A DNA stretch of 64,000 bases from Candidatus Parcubacteria bacterium (GTDB taxonomy: Bacteria > Patescibacteriota > Patescibacteriia > Patescibacteriales > UBA12465): NCBI GenBank assembly GCA_023444045.1, contig JAEZRQ010000002.1, forward strand, positions 76,102-140,101, in the 5' to 3' direction. Under the pieces are notes generated by a model. That model was not told where the DNA came from. It worked only from the letters and a program-made list of their open reading frames with translations, and made no database searches. Shown here one piece after another: positions 6,934 to 57,791 of the stretch (position 1 is its first letter; each line of letters begins with the position of its first letter). Position numbers and translations under genes: made by a program.

Positions 6934-7710
6934 ATGCCACTTGACTTAGGTAATATGAACCTTGAAGAAAGGGTTAAATATTTGGAATTAAAACAAAAGT
7001 ACAAAAAGAAATTGCTTCCTTGGTATAAAAAATGGTGGGGAGTAATAATTTTAGTTATCTTAGGGCTAATTATAGTCTTTGGCACCATGTCCGGCTTTTA
7101 TATTTTTAACGAAACAAAAAGAATAATTGCTGAAAATGAAAATTCTTCAAAAATCGGAAGTGATGTTTTGTTAAAACAGGCTATTTATGGATCTGGCCTA
7201 AATTATTCCCTAGGAAGCGACACAGCGCCGGTTAAAATTGTGGAGTTTGCTGATTTTGCCTGCCCTTATTGTGAACAAGCTCACACTATTTTAAGAAAAA
7301 TTGTAAATAAATATCCTGGGCAAATAAAAATAATATACCGCGACCTGCCACTGCACGAACAATCTGTTAGCCTTGCTTTAGGAGCAAGGTGTGCCGGAGA
7401 GCAAGGAATGTTTTGGGAGATGCACGATCAGCTTTTTGCCAACCAAAGTGTTCTAACTGGCAGCGAAGAAGAGATAAAAGCAATAATTTATAGCCTGGCG
7501 GGGACAATCGGTTTAAATGCGGCTACTTTTGATAGTTGTTACACTAGTAAAAAGTATCTCTACAATATCAGTCAGGATTTTACTGATGCTGGAATTTTAA
7601 AAATAAAAGGCACTCCTTCTTGGTTCATTAATGAAAAATTAGTTTCTGGTTATATTGAAGAGGAAGATTTTTTCAACCTCTTAGAAGGCTACCTTAGTGT
7701 TATAAAATAA
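6934..7710 (+). CDS. membrane-anchored DsbA-family thiol:disulfide oxidoreductase
   Basis: N-terminal TM helix, a CPYC active-site motif (FACPYCEQAH), and the GTPSWFIN cis-Pro-loop-like region. Confidence 0.75.
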   Translation: MPLDLGNMNLEERVKYLELKQKYKKKLLPWYKKWWGVIILVILGLIIVFGTMSGFYIFNETKRIIAENENSSKIGSDVLLKQAIYGSGLNYSLGSDTAPVKIVEFADFACPYCEQAHTILRKIVNKYPGQIKIIYRDLPLHEQSVSLALGARCAGEQGMFWEMHDQLFANQSVLTGSEEEIKAIIYSLAGTIGLNAATFDSCYTSKKYLYNISQDFTDAGILKIKGTPSWFINEKLVSGYIEEEDFFNLLEGYLSVIK

Positions 7711-7712
7711 CT

Positions 7713-8285
7713 ATGAGTAAAGAAATAATCCAAATCAGAGTCCATGGTCGTGGCGGACAAGGGGTGGTAACAGCGGCTGAATTAATTGCCATGGCGGCTT
7801 TTTATGAAGGTAAAGAAGCTCAGGCCTTTCCTTTTTTTGGGGTAGAAAGAAGTGGCGCACCAATCATGGCTTTTGCTAGAATTTCTGATAAAAAAATAAA
7901 AACCAGAGAACAGGTTTATGAGCCTGATTATTTAATTATTCAAGATGAAACCTTAATTGATGATGACGGGGTTTTAGTTGGTTGTAACAACCATACTAAG
8001 TTGATTGTTAATTCTAGCAAATCAGCTAAAGACATTTTTCATAATTTACCAAACTCAAAAATAAAGATAAATAATATTTTTACCACTCCAGCCACAGAAA
8101 TTGCTCTAGAATTTTTAGGAAGAAATATCGTTAATACTGTTATTTTAGGAGCCATGGCAAAATACAGCGGTCTTTTTTCTTTAGCAGCCTTAAAACAAGC
8201 AGTCACTAAAAAATTAATCAGTAAAGGAGAGAATATCTTACAAAAAAATCTGGCCGCTATAACAAAAATATATGAAAGCAATTAG
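7713..8285 (+). CDS. porG: pyruvate/2-oxoacid:ferredoxin oxidoreductase gamma subunit
   Basis: IRVHGRGGQGVVTAAELIA motif typical of the POR gamma subunit, plus operon context. Confidence 0.85.
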   Translation: MSKEIIQIRVHGRGGQGVVTAAELIAMAAFYEGKEAQAFPFFGVERSGAPIMAFARISDKKIKTREQVYEPDYLIIQDETLIDDDGVLVGCNNHTKLIVNSSKSAKDIFHNLPNSKIKINNIFTTPATEIALEFLGRNIVNTVILGAMAKYSGLFSLAALKQAVTKKLISKGENILQKNLAAITKIYESN

Positions 8286-8535
8286 TAAACCAAATACTTC
8301 TTTAAGTAACAAGACTGGTTCTTGGCGAATTTTTAAACCAATTACTGATTATAGTATTTGTATTGGCTGCTCCATGTGCGCCAAGGTTTGTCCTGACGCT
8401 TGCATTTTAATGAAGTCACAGAAAAAATTTGATAATAAATTAAAGCCGGTTACTGATTATGATTATTGTAAAGGCTGTGGCCTATGCGCTAAAGAATGCC
8501 CAGTAAAAGCCATAAAAATGATTAAAGATTTTTAG
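8272..8535 (+). CDS. porD: POR delta subunit (2x[4Fe-4S] ferredoxin)
   Basis: Two CxxCxxCxxxCP motifs (CIGCSMCAKVCP, CKGCGLCAKECP). Confidence 0.85.
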   Translation: MKAISKPNTSLSNKTGSWRIFKPITDYSICIGCSMCAKVCPDACILMKSQKKFDNKLKPVTDYDYCKGCGLCAKECPVKAIKMIKDF

Positions 8536-8536
8536 T

Positions 8537-9679
8537 ATGAAAAAAACTAAGCGCCAATTTTTAGAAGGTTCAGAGGCAATCGCTTTAACTATTAAAGAAA
8601 TTGCCCCTCAGGTAGTAAGTGCCTACCCGATTACTCCACAAACACATATTGTTGAAGACCTATCTAAATTTAAAGCTAATGGGCAAGCAAAATATGAATA
8701 TGTAAGAGCTGAAAGTGAATTCGCGGCCGCTTCAATTGTTTTAGGGGCTAGTGCCACTGGAGTACGTACTTACAGTGCTACCTCATCTCAAGGATTGCTA
8801 CTGATGGCTGAGGTAATTTACAATATTTCTGGCATGAGATTGCCGGTCGTGATGACTGTGGCTAACAGAGCAGTATCAGCGCCGATTAATATTTGGAATG
8901 ATCATAGTGACATAATGGGACTACGTGACGCTGGTGCGATTTTGTTTTTCGCTGAAACTCACCAAGAAGCAATTGACCAGCATGTTTTAGCTTACAAGAT
9001 AGCCGAAAAACTATCATTGCCAGTCTTTGTTAATGTTGATGGTTTTATTCTAACCCACTCCTATGAAGCTTGTGAAATTCCAGAGAGAAAATTAATAAAA
9101 AAGTTTTTACCGGACTACCAAGCGACTAAAGGAGAAATTCTTGACCCTAAAAATCCGGTAACTCTAGGGATGTTTGCTGGGCCAAATTATTATTTTGGTT
9201 TTAGAAAAAAATTACAAGACGATTTACTCTCCAGCACTACTTTAATTGAAAAAGAATATCTTAATTGGAAAAAAATCTTTAATCCAGAAAAAAAAGATAA
9301 GGCTGTTATAATAGACTCTGGTTTATTAGAGTTTTATGGCAATAAGAATCCTAAAACAGTAATTATCACCTTAGGAACACTTACCGGAACAGTTAAATCA
9401 CTGATTGATAATTCAAAAAATAAAACACTGGCTGTTTTAAAAATAAAATGCTATCGCCCTTTCCCAGCTGAACAGATTAAAAAAGTTTTGCGTGGGGTTA
9501 AAAATATAATTGTTTTAGAAAAAACCTACGGCTTAGGATATCAACCGCCTATTCTTCTAGACTTAAGCGCCGCCTTATTTAATGAAAACATAAAAATATT
9601 TTCTGAGGTTGTCGGCCTCGGCGGTAAAGACATTACTGAAAAAGAAATTAACCAAATAATTAAAAAATATGAAAAATAA
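8537..9679 (+). CDS. porA: POR alpha subunit
   Basis: AYPITPQT motif, 380 aa, operon context. Confidence 0.85.
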   Translation: MKKTKRQFLEGSEAIALTIKEIAPQVVSAYPITPQTHIVEDLSKFKANGQAKYEYVRAESEFAAASIVLGASATGVRTYSATSSQGLLLMAEVIYNISGMRLPVVMTVANRAVSAPINIWNDHSDIMGLRDAGAILFFAETHQEAIDQHVLAYKIAEKLSLPVFVNVDGFILTHSYEACEIPERKLIKKFLPDYQATKGEILDPKNPVTLGMFAGPNYYFGFRKKLQDDLLSSTTLIEKEYLNWKKIFNPEKKDKAVIIDSGLLEFYGNKNPKTVIITLGTLTGTVKSLIDNSKNKTLAVLKIKCYRPFPAEQIKKVLRGVKNIIVLEKTYGLGYQPPILLDLSAALFNENIKIFSEVVGLGGKDITEKEINQIIKKYEK

Positions 9680-29729: not shown

Positions 29730-32294
29730 TTATCTAGCAAAATAATCATCGTCATCACTTAAATCGTGTATCTTTTTTTCAGAAGTCTTTTCTTTATTAT
29801 CTTTAATTTCCTCTAAAATCTCTTCTTCGCTAGCAACTTCGTCCTCAGGGCCATCATCATCTAGCAAAAAATCAGGGACATCTTCACTTTCTGTTTCTAC
29901 TTCTATTTCCTCTTCATCCTCACTTTCAGTTTCATCTACCTCATCTTCAACTTCTTCTTCCTCCTCATCCTCTTCATTGTTAGACCCATTAAAGTGAAGC
30001 GTATCATCATTGCCTTCATCTAAATAAGATTCAGGGGCAACAGCCGAAGATCGGCTGTGAACTGGCATCCCGGAAATACCACCACTTTCATACTGCTCTT
30101 TACTAACTAATACTTCACGGGGCTTAGAACCATTAGAGGGACCAATAAAGCCGGACTCTTCTAACATGTCTAGTATTTTTGCTGCCCGGCCATAACCAAT
30201 TGATAATCTTCTTTGTAATAATGAAGTTGAAGCTCTTCCAGCAGCAATAATAATTTCTTTAGCTTGCTCCATCAGTTCATCTTCATCACCATAAGTGCCA
30301 TCCATGCCAACACCGGCAACACCGCCAACTTTTTGTCTGTCTGTTACGCCCTCTAAGTAATCCGGTTCGCCACTTTTTTCTTTTATATAATTAATGACAT
30401 CATTAATTTCTTCATCACTAACATAAGCGCCTTGAATACGTTTTGGTTTAGATAATTCTGAAGTAGAGAGCAACATATCACCCTGGCCAAGCAATTTTTC
30501 AGCGCCACTCATATCTAAAATAGTTTTAGAATCAACAATGGAGGTCACTGAAAAAGCAATACGGGCCGGAATATTAGCTTTAATTAAGCCAGTGATAACA
30601 TCAACGCTAGGTCTTTGGGTAGCTAGAATTAAGTGAATACCAACAGCCCGAGACATCTGCGCTAAACGAATAATAGCCGCTTCCATTTCTTTACCGGCGG
30701 TCATCATAAAGTCAGCAAGTTCATCAATAATAAATACGATGTAAGGTAATTTTTCTTTACTACTAGAATTGTAACTTTGAATATTTTTCTTACCACTTTT
30801 ATTTAAAATATCGTAGCGGTTATTCATTTCATTAAGACACCATTTTAGAGCATTAATGGTCTTAGATACATCGGTAATAACTGGCACCAGTAAGTGAGGA
30901 ATGCCATTATACACTGGAAGCTCCACTCTTTTAGGATCAACCATAATGAAGCGTAAATCTTCCGGATTATTTTGGTAAAGTAAACTAACAATAATTGTGT
31001 TGAGACAGACTGACTTACCAGAATTGGTCGCACCAGCAACTAATAAATGAGGCATACGGGTAATATCATAAATCCAAGAAGTACCAGAAACATCCTTACC
31101 AAGAGCAATCATTAAATTATGTTTGCGAGTTTTAAAAACATTATCTTCTAGAATTTCTCGGAGTCCAACCATCGCTTTAGTTTTATTTGGCACTTCAACT
31201 CCAACTAAAGATTGGCCCGGAATCGGTGCTTCAATACGAATTGGGTGAGCCGCTAAGGCCAGTGACAAGTCATTACTTAAAGTCGTAATCTTAGAAAGCT
31301 TAACGCCTTCAGCGGGTTTAAAAGTGTATTGCGTGACAGTCGGACCAACTTTAGTTTCCGACATTTCTACCGGAATACCAAAATTTTCCAAAGTCTTCTT
31401 AATTCTTGCTTCGCCCATTTTAGTGTCGCCACCAACCGCTTGTCCACTTTTGTGGTTTAGCAGCTCAATCGGAATATCAATCTTAATTTGCTTCTTAGGC
31501 CAAACTATTTTTTCTTGAACTTTGGGAGTGTTTTGTTTTAAAACGGCGGCTGTTGGGACTTCTTCCTCCTCCTCTTCATCATCTTCCTCAGTTTCCTCTT
31601 CGATAGCTTCTTCGCTCAATTCTTTCTTTGACCAAGAGCCTAAAATTTCTTCTCTAGCCTCATCAATAAATTCCTTAGCCCGATTACGAGGCTTTCTTTC
31701 ATTATCTTCCGCTGGAGTAAAAGCAATTTTAAATAATTTAACTAAAGGACTAAAAATAATAGCCAGAAAACTTTCGCGGCCGACTATTTTTGACAGTGAA
31801 GTATTAAAAACTAGAACTAAAGAAATTAAAAATAAACAAATTAGAATAATCACCCCACCCCAGAAACCAAAAAGATAATAGAAAGCTTGGCTGAGCCATA
31901 AACCGATATAACCACCGCCAACGCCAGTGGCTACCGTTTCTTGCCACTGTTCTTTATCAATAAAAAAATGAAATAGGGTTTGGTAGGAAATAAATAAAAT
32001 TACCAAACCAATGTAATCGCTAGCTTTAATTTCATATCTTTTATTACCAACTAGCAACATCCCCCAAAATAAAAAAACTAGCGGCACTAACCAGCGGCCA
32101 AAACCGAAGATTAAGGTTAACCATTTAGATAAGAAGACGCCGACAGCGCCAGAAGAATTAAATAGCCCGAGTAGACTAATAAGACCAACAGCAAAAACCA
32201 GCACAATTCCTAAACTGCGCTTCGCTCTTTCGTCTAAGTTTAAACTCGGCAAAGAAAGATAATCCAAATTACCGTCTTTTTTCTTTTTTCCCAT
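29730..32294 (-). CDS. ftsK: DNA translocase FtsK/SpoIIIE with acidic linker and acidic C-terminal tail
   Basis: N-terminal TM helices, Walker A GATNSGKS, and a gamma-domain-like LLQRRLSIGYGRAAKILDMLEESG. The poly-E/D linker and tail are extra. Confidence 0.9.
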   Translation of the reverse strand: MGKKKKDGNLDYLSLPSLNLDERAKRSLGIVLVFAVGLISLLGLFNSSGAVGVFLSKWLTLIFGFGRWLVPLVFLFWGMLLVGNKRYEIKASDYIGLVILFISYQTLFHFFIDKEQWQETVATGVGGGYIGLWLSQAFYYLFGFWGGVIILICLFLISLVLVFNTSLSKIVGRESFLAIIFSPLVKLFKIAFTPAEDNERKPRNRAKEFIDEAREEILGSWSKKELSEEAIEEETEEDDEEEEEEVPTAAVLKQNTPKVQEKIVWPKKQIKIDIPIELLNHKSGQAVGGDTKMGEARIKKTLENFGIPVEMSETKVGPTVTQYTFKPAEGVKLSKITTLSNDLSLALAAHPIRIEAPIPGQSLVGVEVPNKTKAMVGLREILEDNVFKTRKHNLMIALGKDVSGTSWIYDITRMPHLLVAGATNSGKSVCLNTIIVSLLYQNNPEDLRFIMVDPKRVELPVYNGIPHLLVPVITDVSKTINALKWCLNEMNNRYDILNKSGKKNIQSYNSSSKEKLPYIVFIIDELADFMMTAGKEMEAAIIRLAQMSRAVGIHLILATQRPSVDVITGLIKANIPARIAFSVTSIVDSKTILDMSGAEKLLGQGDMLLSTSELSKPKRIQGAYVSDEEINDVINYIKEKSGEPDYLEGVTDRQKVGGVAGVGMDGTYGDEDELMEQAKEIIIAAGRASTSLLQRRLSIGYGRAAKILDMLEESGFIGPSNGSKPREVLVSKEQYESGGISGMPVHSRSSAVAPESYLDEGNDDTLHFNGSNNEEDEEEEEVEDEVDETESEDEEEIEVETESEDVPDFLLDDDGPEDEVASEEEILEEIKDNKEKTSEKKIHDLSDDDDYFAR

Positions 32295-32329: not shown

Positions 32330-32430
32330 CTCCACCATGATCTTTAGAGCGATTTGAAAAGCAATGATAATTTCAAGGAGAGAGATTTTGAAAATATCTT
32401 CACTTCTCCGCTCTAAAGGTCGCGGCGGAG
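32330..32430. other. 101-nt element closed by a 22-bp imperfect inverted repeat (terminator/insulator-like or small structured RNA)
   Basis: ctccaccatgatctttagagcg … cgctctaaaggtcgcggcggag, with two internal small hairpins. U-runs follow on both strands (minus: UUUUUAUUUU). Confidence 0.4.
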
Positions 32431-32529
32431 TTTTATAGGTTTTCTAAATATGCTGATATGTTTATTATATCAGTTTTTCTTCTCTGAGACGACTAATTAT
32501 TAGAATTAATTAATCAGCTCGGAAAGGAA

Positions 32530-32553
32530 GCGGACAGTTGAACGACTGTCCGC
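32530..32553 (-). repeat. fourth copy of the GUUCAA-loop hairpin (no ribozyme attached), followed by UUCCUUUCC
   Basis: Minus strand reads GCGGACAG-UCGUUCAA-CUGUCCGC then UUCCUUUCC. The loop and trailing motif match the three cassette hairpins, but the stem sequence is completely different. Confidence 0.6.
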
Positions 32554-32575
32554 GATTTTAGAGTATTTTTAAGAG

Positions 32576-32956
32576 CTACTCTTTACTCTTTTTTTCTCTT
32601 TCTATGCGCCTTCGTTCGCAGAAGCGGCAGTTACCCTTGTGAACCATAGCCACGCCCCTGTCAACTTTAGTTACGATATATTCGCAGCCATCTAAATAGA
32701 TAACCTTGTATGATTCTGGGTTAAATCCATACCTATCAATATAATAAGGATATGTGATAGAATCACTTACTGCGACCATAGAATCACTTACTGCGACCAT
32801 AGAATCACTTACTACTTCTATAGTATTTATCTCCGCAGAATCATTCTTGTCTGACAAATATACCACCTTATACGACGGCACATCCGAACATCCCACACAA
32901 AAAAATGCTAAAATAAAAATTATATTTTTCATTTTTTTAATTTTTAAATTCTCCAA
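32576..32956 (-). CDS. small lipoprotein with VSDSMVA tandem repeat (probable true start ATG at 32932)
   Basis: MKNIIFILAFFCVGC is a lipobox-like signal. The track start at 32956 is a TTG. The basic C-terminus contains CRFC. Confidence 0.6.
   Translation of the reverse strand: MENLKIKKMKNIIFILAFFCVGCSDVPSYKVVYLSDKNDSAEINTIEVVSDSMVAVSDSMVAVSDSITYPYYIDRYGFNPESYKVIYLDGCEYIVTKVDRGVAMVHKGNCRFCERRRIEREKKSKE
32757..32815. repeat. 21-bp tandem repeat x ~2.8 inside the lipoprotein gene
   Basis: atagaatcacttactgcgacc occurs twice, followed by the partial copy atagaatcacttactac. It encodes the in-frame VSDSMVA repeats. Confidence 0.9.
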
Positions 32957-33063
32957 AGCACTATTGCCTGGATTATTCTGAAACTAATTAATTTAATAAG
33001 ATTCAAAATAATCCAAACAATAATTTGAGAATAAAAAATGAAAAGATTTTTTTTAAAGAACAT

Positions 33064-33116
33064 TTCCTTTTCGTCGTTTCCGACTCATCAGCCAAGATAC
33101 ACATCTTGGGAAGGAA
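33064..33116 (-). ncRNA. type III hammerhead self-cleaving ribozyme (copy A)
   Basis: Minus strand reads UUCCU-UC^CCAAGAU-GUGU-AUCUUGG-CUGAUGA-GUCG-GAAA-CGAC-GAAA-AGGAA. The full catalytic core is present (CUGAUGA, GAA, A15.1-U16.1, C17). Stems I and II are closed and stem III is open. Confidence 0.9.
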
Positions 33117-33222
33117 GAGCAGATTTGAACTATCTGCTCTCTATTAAACTATTTTATCCATCCGATTTCGCTCTTAGGATTTAAGGCGCTCAATTTAATG
33201 TCAAGAGGGGACAAAATAATAT
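33117..33222 (-). repeat. intergenic cassette A: conserved ~80-nt module + GUUCAA-loop hairpin
   Basis: The module starts immediately after the stop codon (TAG|ATATTATTTTGTCCCCTCTTGACATTAAATTGAGCGCCTTAAATCCTAAGAGCGAAATCGGATGGATAAAATA). The hairpin GAGCAGAU-AGUUCAA-AUCUGCUC follows. The module is near-identical to cassette B. Confidence 0.8.
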
Positions 33223-33366
33223 CTATTTTTTTCTTACTACCAAGGCAACAAAAATAATTGACACCACGGCTAATGGAATAACACTAAAATTGTTATTATA
33301 GCCCATGAGATAGTTTAAGCCCCACATGCAAGCAAGACCTAAGATAATAATTATTATTTTTTTCAT
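33223..33366 (-). CDS. 47-aa hydrophobic peptide (below ORF-track cutoff)
   Basis: MKKIIIIILGLACMWGLNYLMGYNNNFSVIPLAVVSIIFVALVVRKK*. The conserved cassette begins directly after its stop codon, exactly as it does after the 529-aa gene. Confidence 0.5.
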   Translation of the reverse strand: MKKIIIIILGLACMWGLNYLMGYNNNFSVIPLAVVSIIFVALVVRKK

Positions 33367-33412
33367 TTTATTTGCCTACTCTATTACAGGTTTTCGGCTT
33401 CCCCTGATTTTT

Positions 33413-36400
33413 TTATACTAGTCCGGCTCTGCGCAGAGCGTCGGCTAAGAGGCCATCGCTTGAAGTTTCGCTAGACTCACCATCCACCTCATCTTTACCT
33501 TCTTCATATTGGTAATTTCCAAAATGATAATCATATACATAATATTTGACATCATTTGGGTCGGCCCCTACGAAGAAATCTAAGCCACCAAGCTCCGTCA
33601 GGTGGTCGTACACTCGCGCCCGTCCGCAGTGCCCGACAATATGTTCGTCGAGTTTTTCGGCGGGAAGATTTTCTACATTCTTGACAAATTCAAGTGTGCG
33701 ATTTAAATCTCCACCGAAAGCGTTTAAAAGATAGCGAGGTAACTTGTTTCTTTTTTCAAGCTCCTCTCTTTCTTTTTGACGCACTTTGAACAATTGACTC
33801 AGCTCCGCAATCATTTCTTCTATCTCACGACAGATATTATTAACGTCCGTAAAATCACCTTTTTGCAAAGCTGATTTTACTTCCGAAAGCTGATTGCGAA
33901 TTTCGCGGATTTTCTCGGAAATAAGTTCAGGCTCAACCTCAGTTAAAGTTTTTTCAAAACTTTCTTCGGCATTAATAATTAAAGCATTAGCTTTCTCATA
34001 TTCAACACGAAGATTGTTTTTTATTTCCTCAGCTTTAGTTTCCATCCCTCCTACTCGCTCGGAAGAATTTTCAAGAGTTAACCCCTCTATCATTTCCATT
34101 CTAAGCATTTCAAGGTGATTTTTCAGCGCATTTCCCAGCTCGGTCAGCCCCCAACAATTACGAAAGATTTCTTCATTGGGGATCGTCAAAGCTTCAGAAA
34201 CTTGATTGTTAAAATTACTAACCAAATTTCTTTTCGCTCTTTCAATTTGCTCCTGACGAGCTTTTTCTATTCTTGCTCGGTGTTCACCCAAGGTTTGAGT
34301 ATAACCATCGCAAGAAAGTTTTAGCTCGCGACCACTGGGGAGCGAAACACTCTCCGGTTTGGTTTCAAAAATAAAATTTTCTGAGACCTCAATCTTGGCA
34401 ATAAAATCACCATAATAATGAGTATATACAACAGAAAATTCTTTATCTTCAATCTCTATAACTAAAGGATTTTTTTCCTCAATAGAAGCTATCTCCTCTG
34501 GTGAAATTAATTGAGATAAATTTATTCTTAAATCATCTTGACTTATCTCTTTCTCAAGGAGATTTTCAAGTTGAGTAAAACCAAGTACCTTCCAAGGCTC
34601 CAATACTTTGCAGTATTGTTCGCCAATAACTTCGCTATTGTTTTTTGATTCAATAGCTCCGCCACTACGCGCCCAATATGCATCATATTGGTTCATAATT
34701 TCTGTGTTATCATGATAGAGATTTCTTACAACTTCCGAAGAAGCGTATCTACTCATCATATTGTTCACAAAAATTTTGAAAGCCTCAGCGCTCCACGGAG
34801 CAGTCTTTGCCACCCGAGCAATTTCCATATCGTTAAAAACCGTAATATGGTCTTCAACAACACAATTTTGCTCATCATCCCAATGAAGGTTTTCAACCTT
34901 CTCTGAGACCAGATGTGGCGCCACTTCAGCTAACCAGGCTGGGTCCACTTTTGATGCCATACTTACCAAATTAAGAGTCATAGACCCTCTTCTGGTAGCA
35001 ATCTGCAGATCAAAAGGGATTCCTACGATCCAATCAGGAGTAGATCTCTCTACCACTGAACTAGACCCCAACTCACGGTCAGTGTCATCTCCGTTGCGAT
35101 ATGACCCATACTGGTTTTTATATAGATGGTCTACCATACCGGCACAAACAGCTTTCAGGATGTTTTCCCTTTTACCATTTGTACCAAAACGGAAATGTCC
35201 TTTCAAGGCCTCAGATAAAAGATGTCGAATTTCTTTGGCGCGATAAAAATCACGCAAAGCAATCCCTTTTTCTTTCATCTCGACTTCACTCATTGTGCGA
35301 GATATTTCCCACACTTTGAGCTGAGCCATGATGTCAGACTCTCTTTCATCCGGCACCATACCACGCCAATCTGGGCGGTCGGGTCGATTGCGACTCGGCG
35401 GAGGAACAGTAATGCCGTCCATCTCCATAATCGCAGCAACAGTCAAGACGTCACTTACGACGCCAAGACGATCAGCTTCAATTAACATCCGACCATATTT
35501 CACCGAAACCGGAAGCTTGTTTACCAAGCGACCAATTCCAGTTACCTTGCCTTCGCTAGTCATACAGCCCAAACCAATTAAGGTCTTGCGAGCATCACTG
35601 ATGTCTGATTTAGCGGGCTGATGGAAAAATTCCATCATCTCCATATCAAACCCAGCGATTGCCAGACGCAAAACTGTTTGGTCCAAGCGTTTACGCAGAA
35701 TCTCGGCCACCGGGAAGTCGGGCCTGTTTGAACTCGAGCAGTGATCAATATAGATTCCTGCTTTTGTTCTTCCTGCGCGCCCCTTTCTTTGCTTCGAATC
35801 GGCCAGTGAAATTGGTTTCAGGTATAAACCCTCAACTCCATCAACTAGCTCAATCCGACGTTCAAGTCCGGAATCCACGACGGCATCAATGTCATCAATT
35901 GTCACACTGGTTTGCGCAACATTTGTCGACACTACAACCTTCGGCTTACCATAGTGCGCAAAGCACTTGGCTTGCTCATCTGGTGTGAGTTGTCCGTGAA
36001 GTGGCAGGACTACCGCCGAAACATTCAACTGCGCCAGGCGGTTAATAGTCTCATTGATTTCCTGCTGTCCGGGTTGGAAAACCAGAACATTGTGACCTTC
36101 AGCAACTAAAGTTGCAACATCGGACTCAATGTTATAACCGGCCGTTTTTTCCTCAACCGTGAATGTTCGCCCTGGGACAGAAATGATTGGTGCATTATTA
36201 AAAAATGCACTCAACTTTTCCGACTCCAAAGTCGCACTCATGAGAACTACTTTCATAGTTGAGCCAGTGGCAATTTGAGATTTCACCCAGGCCACCAGAA
36301 CTTCCATGTTTTCGTTCCACTCATGCACCTCATCGAGGACGAGAATGCCTCGATTCTGACCCATAAGCTCACGCACAAGTGCGAGGCCATCGGTGCAAAA

Positions 36401-36688
36401 TAGACAACGGGTTGCGGAACTATCCGCTCGTTCTACCGCGGTGCGGTAGCCGATGGTAACCCCAATTTTTTCGCCCATCTCATAAGCCACGCGAGCAGCA
36501 ACAGAACGGGCGGCGAGTCGGCGGGGTTGAGTCACGACTAAGTCATAACCTGCCTCCAGCAAGTACTGCGGTACTTGCGTGGATTTCCCCGCTCCAGTTT
36601 CGGCCGTAATGACCGTTACTGGATTTTCTTTGATGCTCTTCAGAATCTCATTCCGAAACGCATCAATGGGTAATATTGTTTTTTTCAT
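33413..36688 (-). CDS. DEAH-box (HrpA/HrpB-like, SF2) ATP-dependent RNA helicase with long coiled-coil C-terminal extension
   Basis: Motifs I ETGAGKST, Ia TQPRRLAARSVA, II DEVH, III SAT, V TNVAQTSVTI and VI QRKGRAGR. About 450 aa of K/E-rich C-terminal region follow. Confidence 0.85.
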   Translation of the reverse strand: MKKTILPIDAFRNEILKSIKENPVTVITAETGAGKSTQVPQYLLEAGYDLVVTQPRRLAARSVAARVAYEMGEKIGVTIGYRTAVERADSSATRCLFCTDGLALVRELMGQNRGILVLDEVHEWNENMEVLVAWVKSQIATGSTMKVVLMSATLESEKLSAFFNNAPIISVPGRTFTVEEKTAGYNIESDVATLVAEGHNVLVFQPGQQEINETINRLAQLNVSAVVLPLHGQLTPDEQAKCFAHYGKPKVVVSTNVAQTSVTIDDIDAVVDSGLERRIELVDGVEGLYLKPISLADSKQRKGRAGRTKAGIYIDHCSSSNRPDFPVAEILRKRLDQTVLRLAIAGFDMEMMEFFHQPAKSDISDARKTLIGLGCMTSEGKVTGIGRLVNKLPVSVKYGRMLIEADRLGVVSDVLTVAAIMEMDGITVPPPSRNRPDRPDWRGMVPDERESDIMAQLKVWEISRTMSEVEMKEKGIALRDFYRAKEIRHLLSEALKGHFRFGTNGKRENILKAVCAGMVDHLYKNQYGSYRNGDDTDRELGSSSVVERSTPDWIVGIPFDLQIATRRGSMTLNLVSMASKVDPAWLAEVAPHLVSEKVENLHWDDEQNCVVEDHITVFNDMEIARVAKTAPWSAEAFKIFVNNMMSRYASSEVVRNLYHDNTEIMNQYDAYWARSGGAIESKNNSEVIGEQYCKVLEPWKVLGFTQLENLLEKEISQDDLRINLSQLISPEEIASIEEKNPLVIEIEDKEFSVVYTHYYGDFIAKIEVSENFIFETKPESVSLPSGRELKLSCDGYTQTLGEHRARIEKARQEQIERAKRNLVSNFNNQVSEALTIPNEEIFRNCWGLTELGNALKNHLEMLRMEMIEGLTLENSSERVGGMETKAEEIKNNLRVEYEKANALIINAEESFEKTLTEVEPELISEKIREIRNQLSEVKSALQKGDFTDVNNICREIEEMIAELSQLFKVRQKEREELEKRNKLPRYLLNAFGGDLNRTLEFVKNVENLPAEKLDEHIVGHCGRARVYDHLTELGGLDFFVGADPNDVKYYVYDYHFGNYQYEEGKDEVDGESSETSSDGLLADALRRAGLV

Positions 36689-36794
36689 TTTTTTATTTTT
36701 TTGGTTTTATCAACTACTCAGTAATTTGAGTAACTAATAGAGCCAAAAAAATAGGTAAAATGATAAACCTACTAACTATTTATTTTTTAACGTT

Positions 36795-36847
36795 CTCCTT
36801 TTCGTCGTTTCCGACTCATCAGCTAGGATGCACATCCTAGGAAGGAA
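36795..36847 (-). ncRNA. type III hammerhead self-cleaving ribozyme (copy B)
   Basis: UUCCU-UC^CUAGGAU-GUGC-AUCCUAG-CUGAUGA-GUCG-GAAA-CGAC-GAAA-AGGAG. Stem I has two compensatory base-pair changes relative to copy A. Confidence 0.9.
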
Positions 36848-36951
36848 GAGCAAGTTTGAACGACTTGCTCTTTTTTGAACTTATTTTATCCATCCGATTT
36901 CGCTCTTAGGATTTAAAGCGCTCAATTTAATGTCGAGAGGGGACAAAATAT
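36848..36951 (-). repeat. intergenic cassette B: conserved ~80-nt module + GUUCAA-loop hairpin
   Basis: TAA|ATATTTTGTCCCCTCTCGACATTAAATTGAGCGCTTTAAATCCTAAGAGCGAAATCGGATGGATAAAATA, then the hairpin GAGCAAGU-CGUUCAA-ACUUGCUC (compensatory relative to A). Confidence 0.8.
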
Positions 36952-38541
36952 TTACGCCTGGAGTTTATCGTAGGCTCCAGCAAACCCGCGGCCAGCGTCA
37001 CCGTAAGCCTGATATAGGCCATTGGCAGCTGCCCAGCCGTTGGGATACGTCGGGCGACCGTCAACCATCGCAACTTCACCGAGAAATTCGGCAACAACCG
37101 GTTTAGGTCCAGACAGGTTTACCTTATCTGGGAAACGTTTGTCGCCTTTGGCAAGATATGCGGTTCCAGTCATCACCCCCGCCTCAACGAGAAAAGGAAT
37201 AGGACCTAAATCGCGAACATCAGCCACCTGAATGTCGCCCAATGTTACGGTTCTGTCCGGATTTTTCAGCAGCTTCACAGCCGCTTCAATCTCTGTCATT
37301 GCTTCAGCCTCCGATGAAACGTTTTCGCGTTTCATGATTTCCGGAAGACGCATAGCGAGCACTTCAGCTGCAGTAACACCAGGACACTGTCCGGCGTAAG
37401 CAGCGGCCAAGCAATGGTCGGCGGCGGCGATTACCCTGTCTTCTTGCGTTGGTTCAATTCTCAAAAATTTCAGGAGTTGACCCAAACTGGAAGCTTCCAG
37501 GTATTGAGCTGGTGGCAAACCGAATCCAGCGTTACCAGGATTATGATGGTCGCACTGAGCGACAATCGTAAGTCCAGCCGCGGCAGACGGAGCACATTCA
37601 AATATGATGCACTCCAGGCAATCCGTAGATTCACCTGCTTCGCTATCTATCTGATATCCGTCCGCCCGGTAAGCCGTCATGGGGTTACATTTTTCACCAC
37701 CCATGGTTGCGGTAGCTAAAAGTAAACCGTGCTGAATCGCAATTTTTCTGGCCCGTTGCTCCTCGATGTCGGGAGCACCAAAAATGATTACTCGCGGACA
37801 AAATGTTTCGTGGATGAAATTTTCCAAAGCGGTTTGGTCTGCGTATCCACCCCAGAAGGCATTAGTTTTAGTCGTAAGTCCTCCAGTCCAACCGCCAGGA
37901 AATTTGGCATCAATAGCCTTCACCACAGCAGGTGTGCCATAATAATTACTTTCACCATCTCCTGATAAAATCAAAAGATTTTGGCGAGTGCCCTGGGTTT
38001 CAAAAACTCTGTCAGCAATCGGCGCCGTTTTAGAATGTGCACAACGCACAACAACTAATCCGTTCGTGAATTTTTCCTGAGCCGCGACTGCCCGCTCGGC
38101 TTCAATCTCCTGCTCTGAAGTAATCCCCTGGCAAGAGCGGTCGAAAGCGCGCACTTGACGTATTTCTTCGATGGAAGCACCAGAGGCAACAAGCCCCGGG
38201 ATATACCCTTCGTCGTTAATGGCAATAAGAATATCTTCGCGGGTCGGTTTTACACCGATTAATTCAAGCACCTGCAGAATACTCTGCGGATTTCCGCTAA
38301 AATCACCATGATGATCAATTATCAAAGCATTAGTTGGCAGCTCAATATCAACCACCAATTCAATGAGAACAGGGATTTTACCAGCAGTTGTAACAGCTTT
38401 AATTGCGTCACTATAAGCTGAAGCTTTCGCACCCCAACCTAAATTGCCATTTATAACCTCGGCGCTAACCTCGGTTAAAATTTTTTCAATTTGCATCATT
38501 TCAGCATCTTTGCCTCCTAAAAAAAATACGAACTTTTTCAT
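36952..38541 (-). CDS. hypothetical two-domain protein with duplicated DHH-type motif (possible phosphoesterase)
   Basis: 529 aa and very GC-rich. IIDHHGD is at aa 74-80 and CDHHNPG at aa 330-336, each preceded by a similar beta-strand-like start (FVFFLGGKDAEM and VIIFGAPDIEEQ). Family not recognised. Confidence 0.6.
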   Translation of the reverse strand: MKKFVFFLGGKDAEMMQIEKILTEVSAEVINGNLGWGAKASAYSDAIKAVTTAGKIPVLIELVVDIELPTNALIIDHHGDFSGNPQSILQVLELIGVKPTREDILIAINDEGYIPGLVASGASIEEIRQVRAFDRSCQGITSEQEIEAERAVAAQEKFTNGLVVVRCAHSKTAPIADRVFETQGTRQNLLILSGDGESNYYGTPAVVKAIDAKFPGGWTGGLTTKTNAFWGGYADQTALENFIHETFCPRVIIFGAPDIEEQRARKIAIQHGLLLATATMGGEKCNPMTAYRADGYQIDSEAGESTDCLECIIFECAPSAAAGLTIVAQCDHHNPGNAGFGLPPAQYLEASSLGQLLKFLRIEPTQEDRVIAAADHCLAAAYAGQCPGVTAAEVLAMRLPEIMKRENVSSEAEAMTEIEAAVKLLKNPDRTVTLGDIQVADVRDLGPIPFLVEAGVMTGTAYLAKGDKRFPDKVNLSGPKPVVAEFLGEVAMVDGRPTYPNGWAAANGLYQAYGDAGRGFAGAYDKLQA

Positions 38542-38659
38542 TTTTTTATTTTTTTACCTCCTAACACATGTTCGGATTATTCTAAAACCCAAAATAATAA
38601 TTGAGATTTAAAATAATCCAAACAAATGCTTGATAAAAAAATATTTTATTTAAATGAAC

Positions 38660-38712
38660 TTCCTTTTCGTCGTTTCCGACTCATCAGCCAAGACACACAT
38701 CTTGGGAAGGAA
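38660..38712 (-). ncRNA. type III hammerhead self-cleaving ribozyme (copy C)
   Basis: UUCCU-UC^CCAAGAU-GUGU-GUCUUGG-CUGAUGA-GUCG-GAAA-CGAC-GAAA-AGGAA. The core is intact, with one U-G wobble in stem I. Confidence 0.9.
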
Positions 38713-38735
38713 GAGCAGATTTGAACTATCTGCTC
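38713..38735 (-). repeat. GUUCAA-loop hairpin (copy C)
   Basis: GAGCAGAU-AGUUCAA-AUCUGCUC sits directly 5' of hammerhead C. Here the upstream ~200 nt differ from the A/B module. Confidence 0.75.
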
Positions 38736-38939: not shown

Positions 38940-39185
38940 TTATGACCAAACTTCTTTGATAATTTCAATCGGAATGCCAAGAATATCTAAATCTGATGGG
39001 GTTAACCCTTCAGATTTTAATTTCTTAGCTGTAGCTAAGGCCTTAGATCTCTCCGATTTTATTCGGAAATCTTCGACCTCTCTGCTGCAAGCATCACAGT
39101 AGCCGTCAGTGCCGCCCATATAATGGCCAGTCGCATTAGCTCCACAGCGCTTACAGGAACCAAAATATCCCGCCATAGCTTTCAA
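38940..39185 (-). CDS. small Zn-ribbon protein (CxxC…CxxC) with helical C-terminus
   Basis: CKRC…17 aa…CDAC. The track start is a TTG, and an in-frame ATG at 39176 gives 78 aa. Confidence 0.55.
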   Translation of the reverse strand: MKAMAGYFGSCKRCGANATGHYMGGTDGYCDACSREVEDFRIKSERSKALATAKKLKSEGLTPSDLDILGIPIEIIKEVWS

Positions 39186-39947: not shown

Positions 39948-39976
39948 AGTATAGCATTATTTTATACTATTGTCAA
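39948..39976 (-). promoter_or_regulatory. near-consensus sigma70-type promoter driving the island operon
   Basis: Minus strand reads TTGACA (39976..39971), a 17-nt spacer, then TATACT (39953..39948). The -35 is embedded in the palindrome TATTGtCAATA. Confidence 0.55.
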
Positions 39977-40154: not shown

Positions 40155-40904
40155 ATGTACGAAAAAATCATTAATAATTTAGGGCTTTCAAAGGTCCAGG
40201 CAGAAATATTTAACTGTCTACTAATAAACGGCAGTGATAAAGCTAGTAATATCGCTAGAAAAATAAAAAGGCCACGTGGTGTGGCTTATAAGGGTTTAGA
40301 AGAATTAGTATTTATGAAACTAGCAATCAAAGACGAGGATAAAAAAGGAATTGCTGTTTTTTCCGCTGAACACCCCAGCCATTTAGAAGATATTTTGGAT
40401 AAAAAAGAAAAAGAGTTTAAACACAGTCGTCAAGAATTTTTAAATAATTTACCGGACCTAATTTCTTCTTATAATTTAAGCAATAACAAACCGGGAGTTA
40501 AGTTTTATGAGGGTGAGGAAGGAATAGAGAAATCATTAAACGATACTTTACTAGCTAAAGACATTATTTATACTTTCGCTGATATTGAGGCGGTTGAGAA
40601 TAATATCAAACCAATTCAAGATGCTTATGCTAAAAAAAGAGAAAAGCAAAAAATAAAAAAAAGAGTTATCGTTGCCGACACCTCTTTTAATAGAAATTTT
40701 TTAAAAGGATTCAATAATGAATGGACTGAATTTAAATTCTTGCCACCAGAATTCTATAATTTTAGCAGCGGAGTTCAGATTTACGATAATAAGGTGTCTT
40801 ACCAGGTAATTGCCCCAGATAAAAAAATGGCAATAATTATTGAAGACTCCCACGTTTATCAGATGAATAGATTAATCTTTGAGTATCTTTGGAAAACCCT
40901 TTAA
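40155..40904 (+). CDS. TrmB-like winged-helix transcriptional regulator
   Basis: The N-terminus LGLSKVQAEIFNCLLINGSDKASNIARKIKRPRGVAYKGLEELVFMKL fits the TrmB-type wHTH pattern. Confidence 0.6.
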   Translation: MYEKIINNLGLSKVQAEIFNCLLINGSDKASNIARKIKRPRGVAYKGLEELVFMKLAIKDEDKKGIAVFSAEHPSHLEDILDKKEKEFKHSRQEFLNNLPDLISSYNLSNNKPGVKFYEGEEGIEKSLNDTLLAKDIIYTFADIEAVENNIKPIQDAYAKKREKQKIKKRVIVADTSFNRNFLKGFNNEWTEFKFLPPEFYNFSSGVQIYDNKVSYQVIAPDKKMAIIIEDSHVYQMNRLIFEYLWKTL

Positions 40905-57407: not shown

Positions 57408-57730
57408 GCCTCGGTAGCTCAGTGGTAGAGCAAAGGACTGAATTTCGGTCCGTCCTGTAGAAACACAGGAATGAAAATCGGGTGAATTCGGAGAAACCTT
57501 AATTATTAAAATTTTTAATAAAAGGCAATTCCGAGCCAAGCCTTAACTGGGATAAAATGTTAAGGAAGGTGTAGAGACTAGCGGGTGAGCCCAACAATAA
57601 CCCCGCCGCGAGCGCCCGACTCCGTCTTTGTAGAAATATAAACGGAGATGATATAGTCCGATCCTTAAGGAAACTTAAGAAAATACTAAGGAAAATCCTT
57701 GTGTCGTCAGTTCGATTCTGACCCGGGGCA
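57408..57730 (+). tRNA. tRNA-Phe (GAA) interrupted by a group I intron in the anticodon loop
   Basis: Exon 1 is 57408..57439 and exon 2 is 57691..57730. Joined, they give a 72-nt cloverleaf with acceptor GCCUCGG/CCGGGGC, anticodon loop CU|GAAAA and T-loop UUCGAUU. Confidence 0.85.
57440..57690 (+). ncRNA. group I self-splicing intron (251 nt)
   Basis: P1 forms between the exon end GGACU and the internal guide GGUCC, with a U.G wobble at the splice site. The intron ends in G. There are P7-like strands AGACUA…AUAUAGUC and a terminal CUUAAG-GAAA-CUUAAG hairpin. The core resembles bacterial tRNA group I introns. Confidence 0.8.
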
Positions 57731-57791
57731 CAAAAGTAGACAAAAAAATGAACTGGTAATATAATTATACTGTTACCGATGGTTCAATTTA

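Follow-up and report, generated by a model that had tools for sequence, protein, structure and literature searches.

A conserved-loop hairpin adjoining hammerhead ribozymes or a long hairpin at the gene boundaries of a Patescibacteria operon

The 64,000-nt stretch of DNA analysed here (referred to as the window) comes from a Candidatus Parcubacteria bacterium (contig JAEZRQ010000002.1, positions 76,102 to 140,101) and carries on its minus strand an operon whose gene boundaries hold four copies of a small hairpin with a GUUCA(A) loop (HP1). Each copy is followed, with no spacer, either by a type III hammerhead ribozyme (modules A, B, and C) or by a long imperfect hairpin (HP2, module D). We propose, at roughly even chances, that HP1 supplies the hairpin of a two-part punctuation module between genes, by which the operon transcript is cut into single-gene mRNAs, each capped by a hairpin. 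The loop is conserved among relatives and the stem covaries, the hammerhead and HP2 replace each other at orthologous gene boundaries, and the hairpin is restricted to this operon.

The hairpin, its loop, and its partners

Reading of the minus-strand sequence located the four hairpins at the positions given by the original prediction. HP1-A (33139..33117) has an 8-bp core, GAGCAGAU-AGUUCAA-AUCUGCUC, extended to a 10-bp stem (33141..33115) that abuts stem III of the hammerhead in the minimum free energy (MFE) fold (z = -3.7). HP1-B, with its core at 36870..36848 (GAGCAAGU-CGUUCAA-ACUUGCUC), likewise extends to 10 bp (36872..36846, AAGAGCAAGU-CGUUCAA-ACUUGCUCUU; fold z = -4.2), and the hairpin of HP1-C (38735..38713) is identical to that of HP1-A. 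HP1-D (32553..32530) is preferably drawn with 9 bp as GCGGACAGU-CGUUCA-ACUGUCCGC or as GCGGACAG(U)-CGUUCA-(A)CUGUCCGC. Against covariance model R1 the copies scored 56.1 (A), 53.2 (B), 40.6 (C), and 39.4 bits (D). The pattern GTTCAAN{6,10}TTCCTT matches the window four times where 0.10 matches are expected, at least four being reached in 0 of 100 shuffles, and the flank CUUCCUU(U)C has only four occurrences in the window.

Modules A and C share 89% identity over 99 nt, with similarity continuing downstream, and are recent duplicates, so that the window holds three independent stems and not four. The stems vary while keeping their pairing, as had been claimed, with those of A and C counting as one. 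A covariance-model search of the other 58 kb of the window returned no further copy; all four lie within 6.2 kb, on the sense strand of one operon and at gene boundaries. Bare GTTCAA shows no enrichment across the window (35 occurrences observed, 41 expected).

Related loci were collected from three sources, namely contigs encoding homologues of the operon's 529-aa protein, which come from Paceibacterota/Patescibacteria metagenome-assembled genomes, genome contigs scanned for the hammerhead core CTGATGAGTCGNAAACGACGAAA, and metagenomes scanned for the same core preceded by GTTYAA. Hairpin scans combined with the covariance model yielded 26-27 distinct HP1 sequences in about 10 contigs, and all HP1-bearing contigs carry the same operon, with an NrN-like phosphodiesterase and an HrpA-like helicase (tblastn). 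In loop-anchored copies the loop K-U-U-Y-A-A is nearly invariant, at 1.5-2.0 bits per position compared with 0.25-0.85 bits in the stem, and UUYAA is present in 25 of 27 loops. The eight stem pairs closest to the loop each occur as three to five Watson-Crick or wobble pair types, with a mean pairwise identity of 36% between loop-proximal stem hexamers. Stems measure 8-12 bp at -10 to -18 kcal/mol, the exception being one 6-bp copy at -6.5 kcal/mol. The covariance alignment (A5) has only 69.6% of its cells paired, because loop lengths differ between hammerhead-type and D-type copies and the register slips; the pair statistics were therefore taken from loop-anchored stems. The larger set bears out the original prediction of a conserved loop on a covarying stem, and the covariance-model search that had been suggested as a check found HP1 only within this operon, not as a dispersed repeat.

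MFE folds of the window copies place HP1 against stem III or HP2 with zero unpaired nucleotides, and the offset lies between -2 and +1 nt in most of the wider set. In about 24 of 27 copies across loci, a second GUUCAA, single-stranded, is found 0-7 nt 5′ of the stem. In the window this twin stands 2 nt 5′ of HP1-B (36880..36875, minus strand), a GUUUAA variant is read near HP1-A (33149..33144, minus strand), and HP1-C has no upstream GUUCAA. The conserved loop together with its single-stranded twin argues for a sequence-specific partner, most likely a protein. Target-site duplication was considered as a source of the flanking GUUC motifs and rejected, since it leaves the copy in the loop unexplained.

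The three type III hammerheads occupy 33117..33063 (A), 36848..36795 (B), and 38713..38659 (C) of the minus strand. Their C17 residues are C33110, C36841, and C38706, with predicted cleavage at 33110/33109, 36841/36840, and 38706/38705, i.e., 7 nt past the HP1 stem. CUGAUGA...CGAAA, U16.1, and C17 are found in all three, the CUGAUGA...GAAA core being intact in A and that of B having been recognised by pattern search. MFE folds of A-C display three helices, with stems I and II loop-closed and stem III open, which is the type III shape, and B folds into a full three-stem hammerhead. Rfam model RF00008 scored A at 39.1 bits (E 6.6e-6) and C at 42.2 bits (E 8.9e-7), and matched B only in part (18.6 bits, E 4.3). 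Stem III is 4-7 bp long, and stems I and III covary among homologues. Two hammerheads on the related contig L131 (at 9290 and 11955) have CCGAUGA for CUGAUGA (U4 to C) with HP1 and all stems kept; they may be inactive or represent an unusual core variant.

The UUCCUU that follows HP1 is the 5′ strand of hammerhead stem III in A, B, and C (U33116-U33111, minus strand, in hammerhead A), as had been stated for three copies, and in module D the flank is the 5′ strand of HP2. Strand pairs of stem III in relatives read UUCCGU/ACGGAA, UUCCAU/AUGGAA, UUCUGU/ACAGAA, CGGU/ACCG, and CCCU/AGGG; the flank, which the original prediction took to be conserved, changes together with the 3′ strand. UUCCUU(U)C is hence one strand of a covarying helix and not an independent motif. 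The hairpin of HP1-B recurs identically in L001 and L131, adjoining hammerheads with a different stem III. A small open reading frame (ORF) starting at the AUG in GGAAAUGUUC was also considered and rejected, as this AUG is not conserved.

Module D contains no hammerhead core. In its place lies HP2 (32529..32477, 53 nt, minus strand), which starts directly after HP1-D and whose all-pyrimidine 5′ strand UUCCUUUCC pairs with the all-purine 3′ strand AGAGAAGAA (MFE -31.4 kcal/mol, z = -7.1). Among homologues the consensus strands are CUUCYUUUCC and AGARRAGAA, the stem of about 19-22 bp retains a conserved C.A mismatch, and an inner hairpin of some 8 bp covaries; RNAalifold of 11 HP2 homologues gave 23 pairs, 9 of them with compensatory changes. 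A pattern search for HP2 that ignored HP1 retrieved 11 copies with HP1 directly 5′ in each, and the loops of these HP1 copies contain UU[CU]A in 11 of 11 and GUUCA in 8 of 11. The fourth copy is therefore ribozyme-free, as first described, but it does not stand alone, since it abuts a conserved and covarying hairpin.

The two partners are exchanged at orthologous gene boundaries. Downstream of the NrN-like gene, the window carries a structured element described below (the P-element) followed by HP1 and a hammerhead (module B), and three relatives have the P-element, HP1, and HP2 (L001 at 8941, L135 at 1934, L136 at 2402). After a 256-aa gene, a hammerhead is found in L001 and L131, and HP2 in L126. 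HP1 is retained at every swapped boundary, which leaves two constants, the hairpin itself and some pairing partner for the strand that immediately follows it. HP2 thus looks like a stand-in for the ribozyme, and the replacement of a ribozyme by a long hairpin at orthologous boundaries argues that selection keeps the cut and not the ribozyme itself.

Proposed mechanism and competing explanations

In the mechanism that we propose, HP1 would fold at each gene boundary as the intergenic RNA is made and would stack coaxially on the short and weak stem III that directly follows it, thereby aiding the folding of the ribozyme. The hammerhead would then cleave after C17 (33110, 36841, and 38706), and the upstream mRNA would end in HP1 plus a 7-nt tail, UUCCUUC, with a 2′,3′-cyclic phosphate, whereas the downstream mRNA would begin with a 5′-OH and retain the ribozyme body. 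A stable hairpin with a tail of at most 7 nt is a poor substrate for 3′ exonucleases, and the upstream end would be expected to resist them. The earlier suggestion of a 3′-end stabiliser fits this geometry, with the hammerhead site 7 nt past the stem. HP2 has the shape of an RNase III substrate (a duplex of about two turns interrupted by an internal mismatch), which suggests that its boundary is probably cut by a double-strand-specific, RNase III-like enzyme. The GUUCA(A) loop and the single-stranded copy 5′ of the stem would together serve as a clade-specific recognition motif for a likely protein.

Several observations weigh against this proposal. The host is uncultivated, and both hammerhead cleavage and the RNA ends are predicted from sequence. 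All three hammerheads fall under the RF00008 gathering score of 48.5 bits, a shortfall caused by the 4-nt stem II loop and the longer stem I and not by defects of the core. RNase III cleavage of HP2 is a guess from its shape, and HP1-D also fits the pattern of a terminator. Furthermore, a purely structural hairpin does not need a conserved loop, so a partner must be assumed, and no candidate protein binding the HP1 loop was found. GUUCAA is not self-complementary, and its complement UUGAAC, sought by eye in the hammerhead loops, the HP2 loops, and the P-element, was not seen there; because no complementary RNA was found in cis, a protein is the likelier partner of the loop. Finally, part of the copies was retrieved by requiring GTTYAA, which inflates the apparent conservation of the loop, and the subsets unbiased in this respect (11 HP2-anchored and 8 synteny-plus-hammerhead copies) are smaller.

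A more ambitious version, which we regard as unlikely, would join all of these parts into a composite device for RNA processing and elongation control that is undescribed in bacteria. The loop and its twin would bind a dedicated factor, possibly the operon's own HrpA-like helicase or NrN-like phosphodiesterase, that couples cleavage to mRNA fate and autoregulates this RNA-metabolism operon. At the same time, a boxA-like motif would re-arm RNA polymerase after the cut, the P-element would be a new class of ribozyme or riboswitch, and HP2 would be a protein-cleaved or otherwise functional replacement of the ribozyme. If such a device were real, bacteria of the Candidate Phyla Radiation (CPR) would be the first natural system to reveal, through conserved partners, the biological role of a genomic hammerhead.

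It is rather unlikely that HP1 acts mainly as an intrinsic (Rho-independent) terminator or attenuator, bringing about a partial stop at the boundaries and leaving the hammerhead or HP2 to act only on read-through. A terminator scan called HP1-D terminator-like, with 9 pairs (6 GC) and the tail TTCCTTTCCG (5 T in 8); this copy stands at the operon end, before ftsK, and most copies are A-rich before the stem and U/C-rich after it. However, copies A-C have only two U after the stem (CUCUU-CCUUCC) and received no call on the sense strand in the same scan, the composition of the tail is explained by pairing with purine-rich partners, and terminators do not conserve their loop sequence. Instead of marking the end of a transcription unit, A, B, C, and most homologues lie between co-directional operon genes, and D-type modules (HP1 plus HP2) also occur at internal gene boundaries of the operon in L126, L135, and L136. 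The earlier verdict that the hairpin is not a simple terminator consequently stands for A-C; HP1-D passes the terminator pattern and may have a partial terminator role.

Quite unlikely as a full account, though possibly complementary to the punctuation proposal, is an antitermination site like lambda nut or the rrn leader, at which GUUCAA, a boxB-like HP1 loop, and a boxA-like motif would recruit Nus factors or a clade-specific protein and let polymerase pass through untranslated, cleaved intergenic RNA. Phage HK022 put RNAs consist of two abutting hairpins, as do HP1 and HP2, and the order of single-stranded motif, spacer, and conserved-loop hairpin mirrors that of boxA, spacer, and boxB. The boxA-like motif UGUUCUUUAAAA directly follows hammerhead A (33062..33051, minus strand) and recurs in copy C as AGUUCAUUUAAAUAAAA (38660..38644, minus strand), copy B being degenerate; the consensus after hammerheads is (U/A)GUUC(U/A/G)UU(A/G)AAAA. 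UGUUCUUUAAAA agrees at 8 of 9 positions with the E. coli rrn boxA, UGCUCUUUA (PMC2724277); no fetched locus contains an rRNA from which a boxA of CPR bacteria themselves could be read. It is close to UGCUCUUUA(ACAA), single-stranded, and placed in a transcribed spacer. Within 22 nt past the hammerhead, GTTC[ATG]TT is present in 20 of 68 CPR hammerheads of the non-Saccharibacteria type, compared with 0.3% of background windows, an enrichment of about 90-fold. Set against these likenesses, GUUCAA is without the UUU(A/G) core of boxA, no clear boxA-like motif is seen in D-type modules (none follows HP2), copy C lacks the upstream GUUCAA, and no N-like protein is evident.

Improbable, too, is a role of HP1 as the expression platform of the P-element, which would behave in the manner of a riboswitch or ribozyme. 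The P-element is about 60 nt long and lies just 3′ of the stop codon that ends the NrN-like or the helicase gene, with HP1 directly 3′ of it. Its copy A (33212..33153, minus strand) is placed between a stop codon and HP1-A, copy B (36944..36885, minus strand) is a 97% identical repeat of it, and seven homologues are known from relatives (L001 8880-8940, L130, two in L135, L136 2325-2390, L126 4620-4685, and L131 11835-11900). The model built on nine homologues has four covarying helices and is doubly pseudoknotted; 94.8% of its cells are paired, a share that drops to 23-50% once the partners are slid. These helices are P1 (GUC/GAC), a pseudoknot in which CUC/GAG changes to CCC/GGG, stem b (CGC/GCG), and S2, with the variants AUCC/GGAU, UCCC/GGGA, UCUC/GAGA, UCGG/CCGA, and GUGG/CCAC. 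The S2 loop (AAGAGCGAA...) repeats the 5′ strand of HP1 and could compete for its 3′ strand, toggling HP1 and thereby hammerhead folding or termination. The heptamer concerned (GAGCGAA/AAGAGCG) can pair with the 3′ strand of HP1 in L001, in L135, and in both window copies (A and B), but the complementarity shrinks to 4 bp in L136 and L131. Moreover, most HP1 copies (C, D, and about 18 others) are unaccompanied by a P-element, neither a ligand nor a cleavage site can be proposed, and the element tracks the upstream and not the downstream genes.

A tRNA-like minihelix, in which UUCAA would act as a T-loop for RNase P, RNase Z, the CCA-adding enzyme, or TruB, is very improbable. Mitochondrial t-elements, known from plants, are tRNA-like structures at mRNA boundaries with UUCRA in the T-arm loop, and HP1 shares with them this loop motif and its placement. 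UUYAA in 25 of 27 loops fits UUNRA (T54-Psi55-C56-R57-A58), and stems of 8-12 bp approach the 12 bp of a minihelix. The register is wrong, however: the G is unpaired, the G53-C61 closure is missing, and the two spare nucleotides are 5′ instead of 3′. ARAGORN returned only the four true tRNAs of the window, no Rfam tRNA model matched near HP1 even at E <= 5, the RCCA-like tail expected for RNase P is not conserved across copies, and other CPR lineages have GNRA or UUCG loops at the same place. The resemblance to a T-loop that was mentioned at the outset is thus confined to the UUCRA itself.

Hardly credible is the view that HP1 and the hammerhead form a selfish element of the repetitive extragenic palindromic (REP) or miniature inverted-repeat transposable element (MITE) kind, spread by duplication and with its loop conserved by recent ancestry only, since, despite the extended 89% identity of A and C and the gain and loss of modules among relatives (one lies in L001 between genes that are fused in the window), there are only four copies in 64 kb, all within 6.2 kb at sense-strand gene boundaries of one operon and with the stem as the variable part, where REP elements show many scattered copies and a conserved stem, a scan of an 809-kb syntenic contig for GTTYAA-preceded hammerhead cores matched only two operon sites, GTTCAA is not enriched in the window, and stems almost wholly diverged around an undiverged loop are the opposite of neutral decay.

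Known systems and hammerheads of other CPR lineages

The role of genomically encoded bacterial hammerheads is still largely unknown, and one proposal for bacteria is that ribozymes cut polycistronic mRNAs into fragments that differ in stability (PMC6765202). The present operon resembles the hammerhead and twister systems of that proposal in that type III hammerheads lie between co-directional genes, where a cut would split the operon transcript. It differs from them by a fixed partner hairpin that abuts stem III, by the conserved loop of this hairpin, by the occurrence at several boundaries of one operon, by the interchange with HP2, and by the boxA-like motif that follows. The operon thereby offers a readable case, with three hammerheads and one HP2 at gene boundaries, each paired with a hairpin that would become a 3′ end.

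RNase III sites in the early mRNAs of phage T7 leave a 3′ hairpin. Similarly, the stem-loops at intergenic processing sites of the Clostridium cellulolyticum cip-cel operon set transcript stability (PMC4423207). Both systems have a stable 3′ stem-loop next to the cleavage site that is kept by the upstream fragment, as is proposed for HP1. However, they are cut by protein RNases and their loops are not conserved, whereas in the present operon self-cleavage is predicted, the hairpin touches a helix of the ribozyme, and the loop is under selection. The lambda nut site (boxA-spacer-boxB) and the boxB-boxA site of the rrn leader (PMC2724277) share with the modules a conserved loop on a variable stem, a short single-stranded motif close by, and a boxA-like sequence rich in U (UGUUCUUUA compared with UGCUCUUUA). 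Here, by contrast, a whole hammerhead separates the boxA-like motif from the hairpin, the loop is GUUCA and not a GNRA-like pentaloop, no N-like protein is evident, and Nus binding would be hypothetical. In eukaryotes, the 3′ stem-loop of histone mRNA is bound by the stem-loop-binding protein (SLBP), and cleavage by CPSF73 is guided by the U7 small nuclear ribonucleoprotein. There, too, a conserved stem-loop a few nucleotides upstream of the cut that forms the 3′ end stays behind as a protein-binding 3′ end; HP1 has no sequence or evolutionary relation to it, and the likeness is one of logic only.

Among the other non-Saccharibacteria CPR hammerheads, a perfect hairpin of at least 6 bp ends -2 to +5 nt from stem III in 47 of 62, compared with 25% at random positions. 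The loops of these hairpins are unrelated to GUUCA and include GNRA and UUCG. A Parcubacteria contig (L017, 2500-6500) alone has eight hammerheads in about 4 kb, with adjoining loops that include GAAA, GCAA, GUAA, GCGA, and UUCG. As hairpins next to stem III are common and their loops unrelated, the core role of the hairpin is structural and generic, and the GUUCA loop is clade-specific. HP1 is accordingly this clade's version of a more general pairing of hairpin and hammerhead in CPR bacteria. The original prediction of a sequence-specific recognition hairpin is upheld as regards the conserved loop, but not as the general role of the hairpin, to which recognition of the loop would be a clade-specific addition.

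A literature search for hammerheads in CPR bacteria, Saccharibacteria, or Patescibacteria yielded nothing relevant, and no description of the hairpin-plus-hammerhead arrangement was found in the literature searched. The RNA biology of the CPR is almost unexplored, and many of its hammerheads share the layout of hairpin, ribozyme, and boxA-like motif, in which the conserved GUUCA loop provides a concrete handle for finding the partner.

Further hammerhead-bearing loci were noted in passing. About 75 loci of Saccharibacteria (TM7; L006-L124) carry a very conserved hammerhead subtype with stem III GUUCGC/GCGAAC, and many of these copies have a GGCGG...CCGCC hairpin about 25 nt upstream that does not abut the ribozyme. 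A TrmB-like regulator stands beside strings of small genes separated by hairpin-hammerhead units in L123, L073, and L075, L117 being listed with them; in the window, a TrmB-like regulator next to such strings is found at 40155-40904.

The operon and other elements of the window

Transcription of the operon runs along the minus strand and probably starts at the promoter-like site 39976..39948. In the direction of transcription, a Zn-ribbon ORF (38940..39185) is followed by module C, the gene of the 529-aa NrN-like protein (36952..38541), module B, and a HrpA/HrpB-like DEAH helicase (33413..36688). Just 3′ of the helicase stop codon lies a DUF805b RNA (33373-33407; Rfam RF02914, 49.7 bits, above gathering), and downstream of it are a 47-aa hydrophobic ORF (33223-33366), module A, a 126-aa lipoprotein-like ORF (32576..32956), module D, and ftsK (29730..32294). 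The window is part of a bacterial chromosome, and the Paceibacterota/Patescibacteria origin of the homologues of its 529-aa protein places it in the CPR. A phage origin was rejected, as no similarity to phage records was detected and, in the 18 viral contigs that share the hammerhead core, the hammerheads differ in topology and HP1 is lacking.

In the 529-aa protein, two DHH phosphodiesterase domains of the NrN family are joined in tandem, and the N-terminal half matches PDB entry 9lq9 'NrN' (E 4.5e-26). NrN is the SAM-AMP-degrading enzyme of type III CRISPR systems (PMC10600005). The syntenic contig L001 encodes the two halves in separate genes (6971-7741 and 8001-8876), with an HP1-hammerhead module between them, and in L131 and L126 they are likewise separate with an HP1 module in between. 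A distant homologue of the protein (P0027) carries the CorA-family Pfam domain PF01544, as in CRISPR-associated NrN-CorA fusions. Within the 126-aa ORF, positions 32757-32826 hold three tandem 21-nt repeats encoding VVSDSMVA units, of which two are identical and the third is 82% identical in the reported 28-nt register.

Ribozyme-rich genomic contexts of this kind have earlier yielded the twister-sister, pistol, and hatchet ribozymes. The P-element is put forward as a candidate new structured RNA, a ribozyme or riboswitch; searches of Rfam at E <= 5 or 10 gave no match for it. A likeness to the pistol ribozyme (RF02679) was entertained for the 69-nt repeat 5′ of modules A and B and rejected, as there is no Rfam match. 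Pistol consists of P1, P2, and P3, a pseudoknot between the P1 loop and the P2-P3 junction, and a 2-nt GU cleavage junction (PMC4604425); P1, the pseudoknot, stem b, and S2 of the P-element do not map onto this architecture.

Two more conserved elements flank the modules. Past the hammerhead and ahead of the next start codon lies a long hairpin of the 5′ untranslated region, UUUGGAUUAUUUUGAAUCU ... AGAAUAAUCCRGGCAAUGUUG, which occurs on the minus strand of the window after modules A (32965-33040) and C (38570-38645) and also in L130, L135 (130-200), and L136 (655-715). Between module D and ftsK, four related genomes share an element of the form CUCCGCC-N(8-10)-UAGAGCGGAGAAGU, probably a hairpin, with sites at 32400-32445 of the window (minus strand), L001 12720-12760, L131, and L135 5730-5770. 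Elsewhere in the window, an apparent tRNA-Phe(GAA) gene (57408-57733, plus strand), missed by ARAGORN, has its anticodon loop interrupted by a group I intron (57430-57680; Rfam RF00028, 96 bits) and adjoins genes for tRNA-Ile and tRNA-Met.

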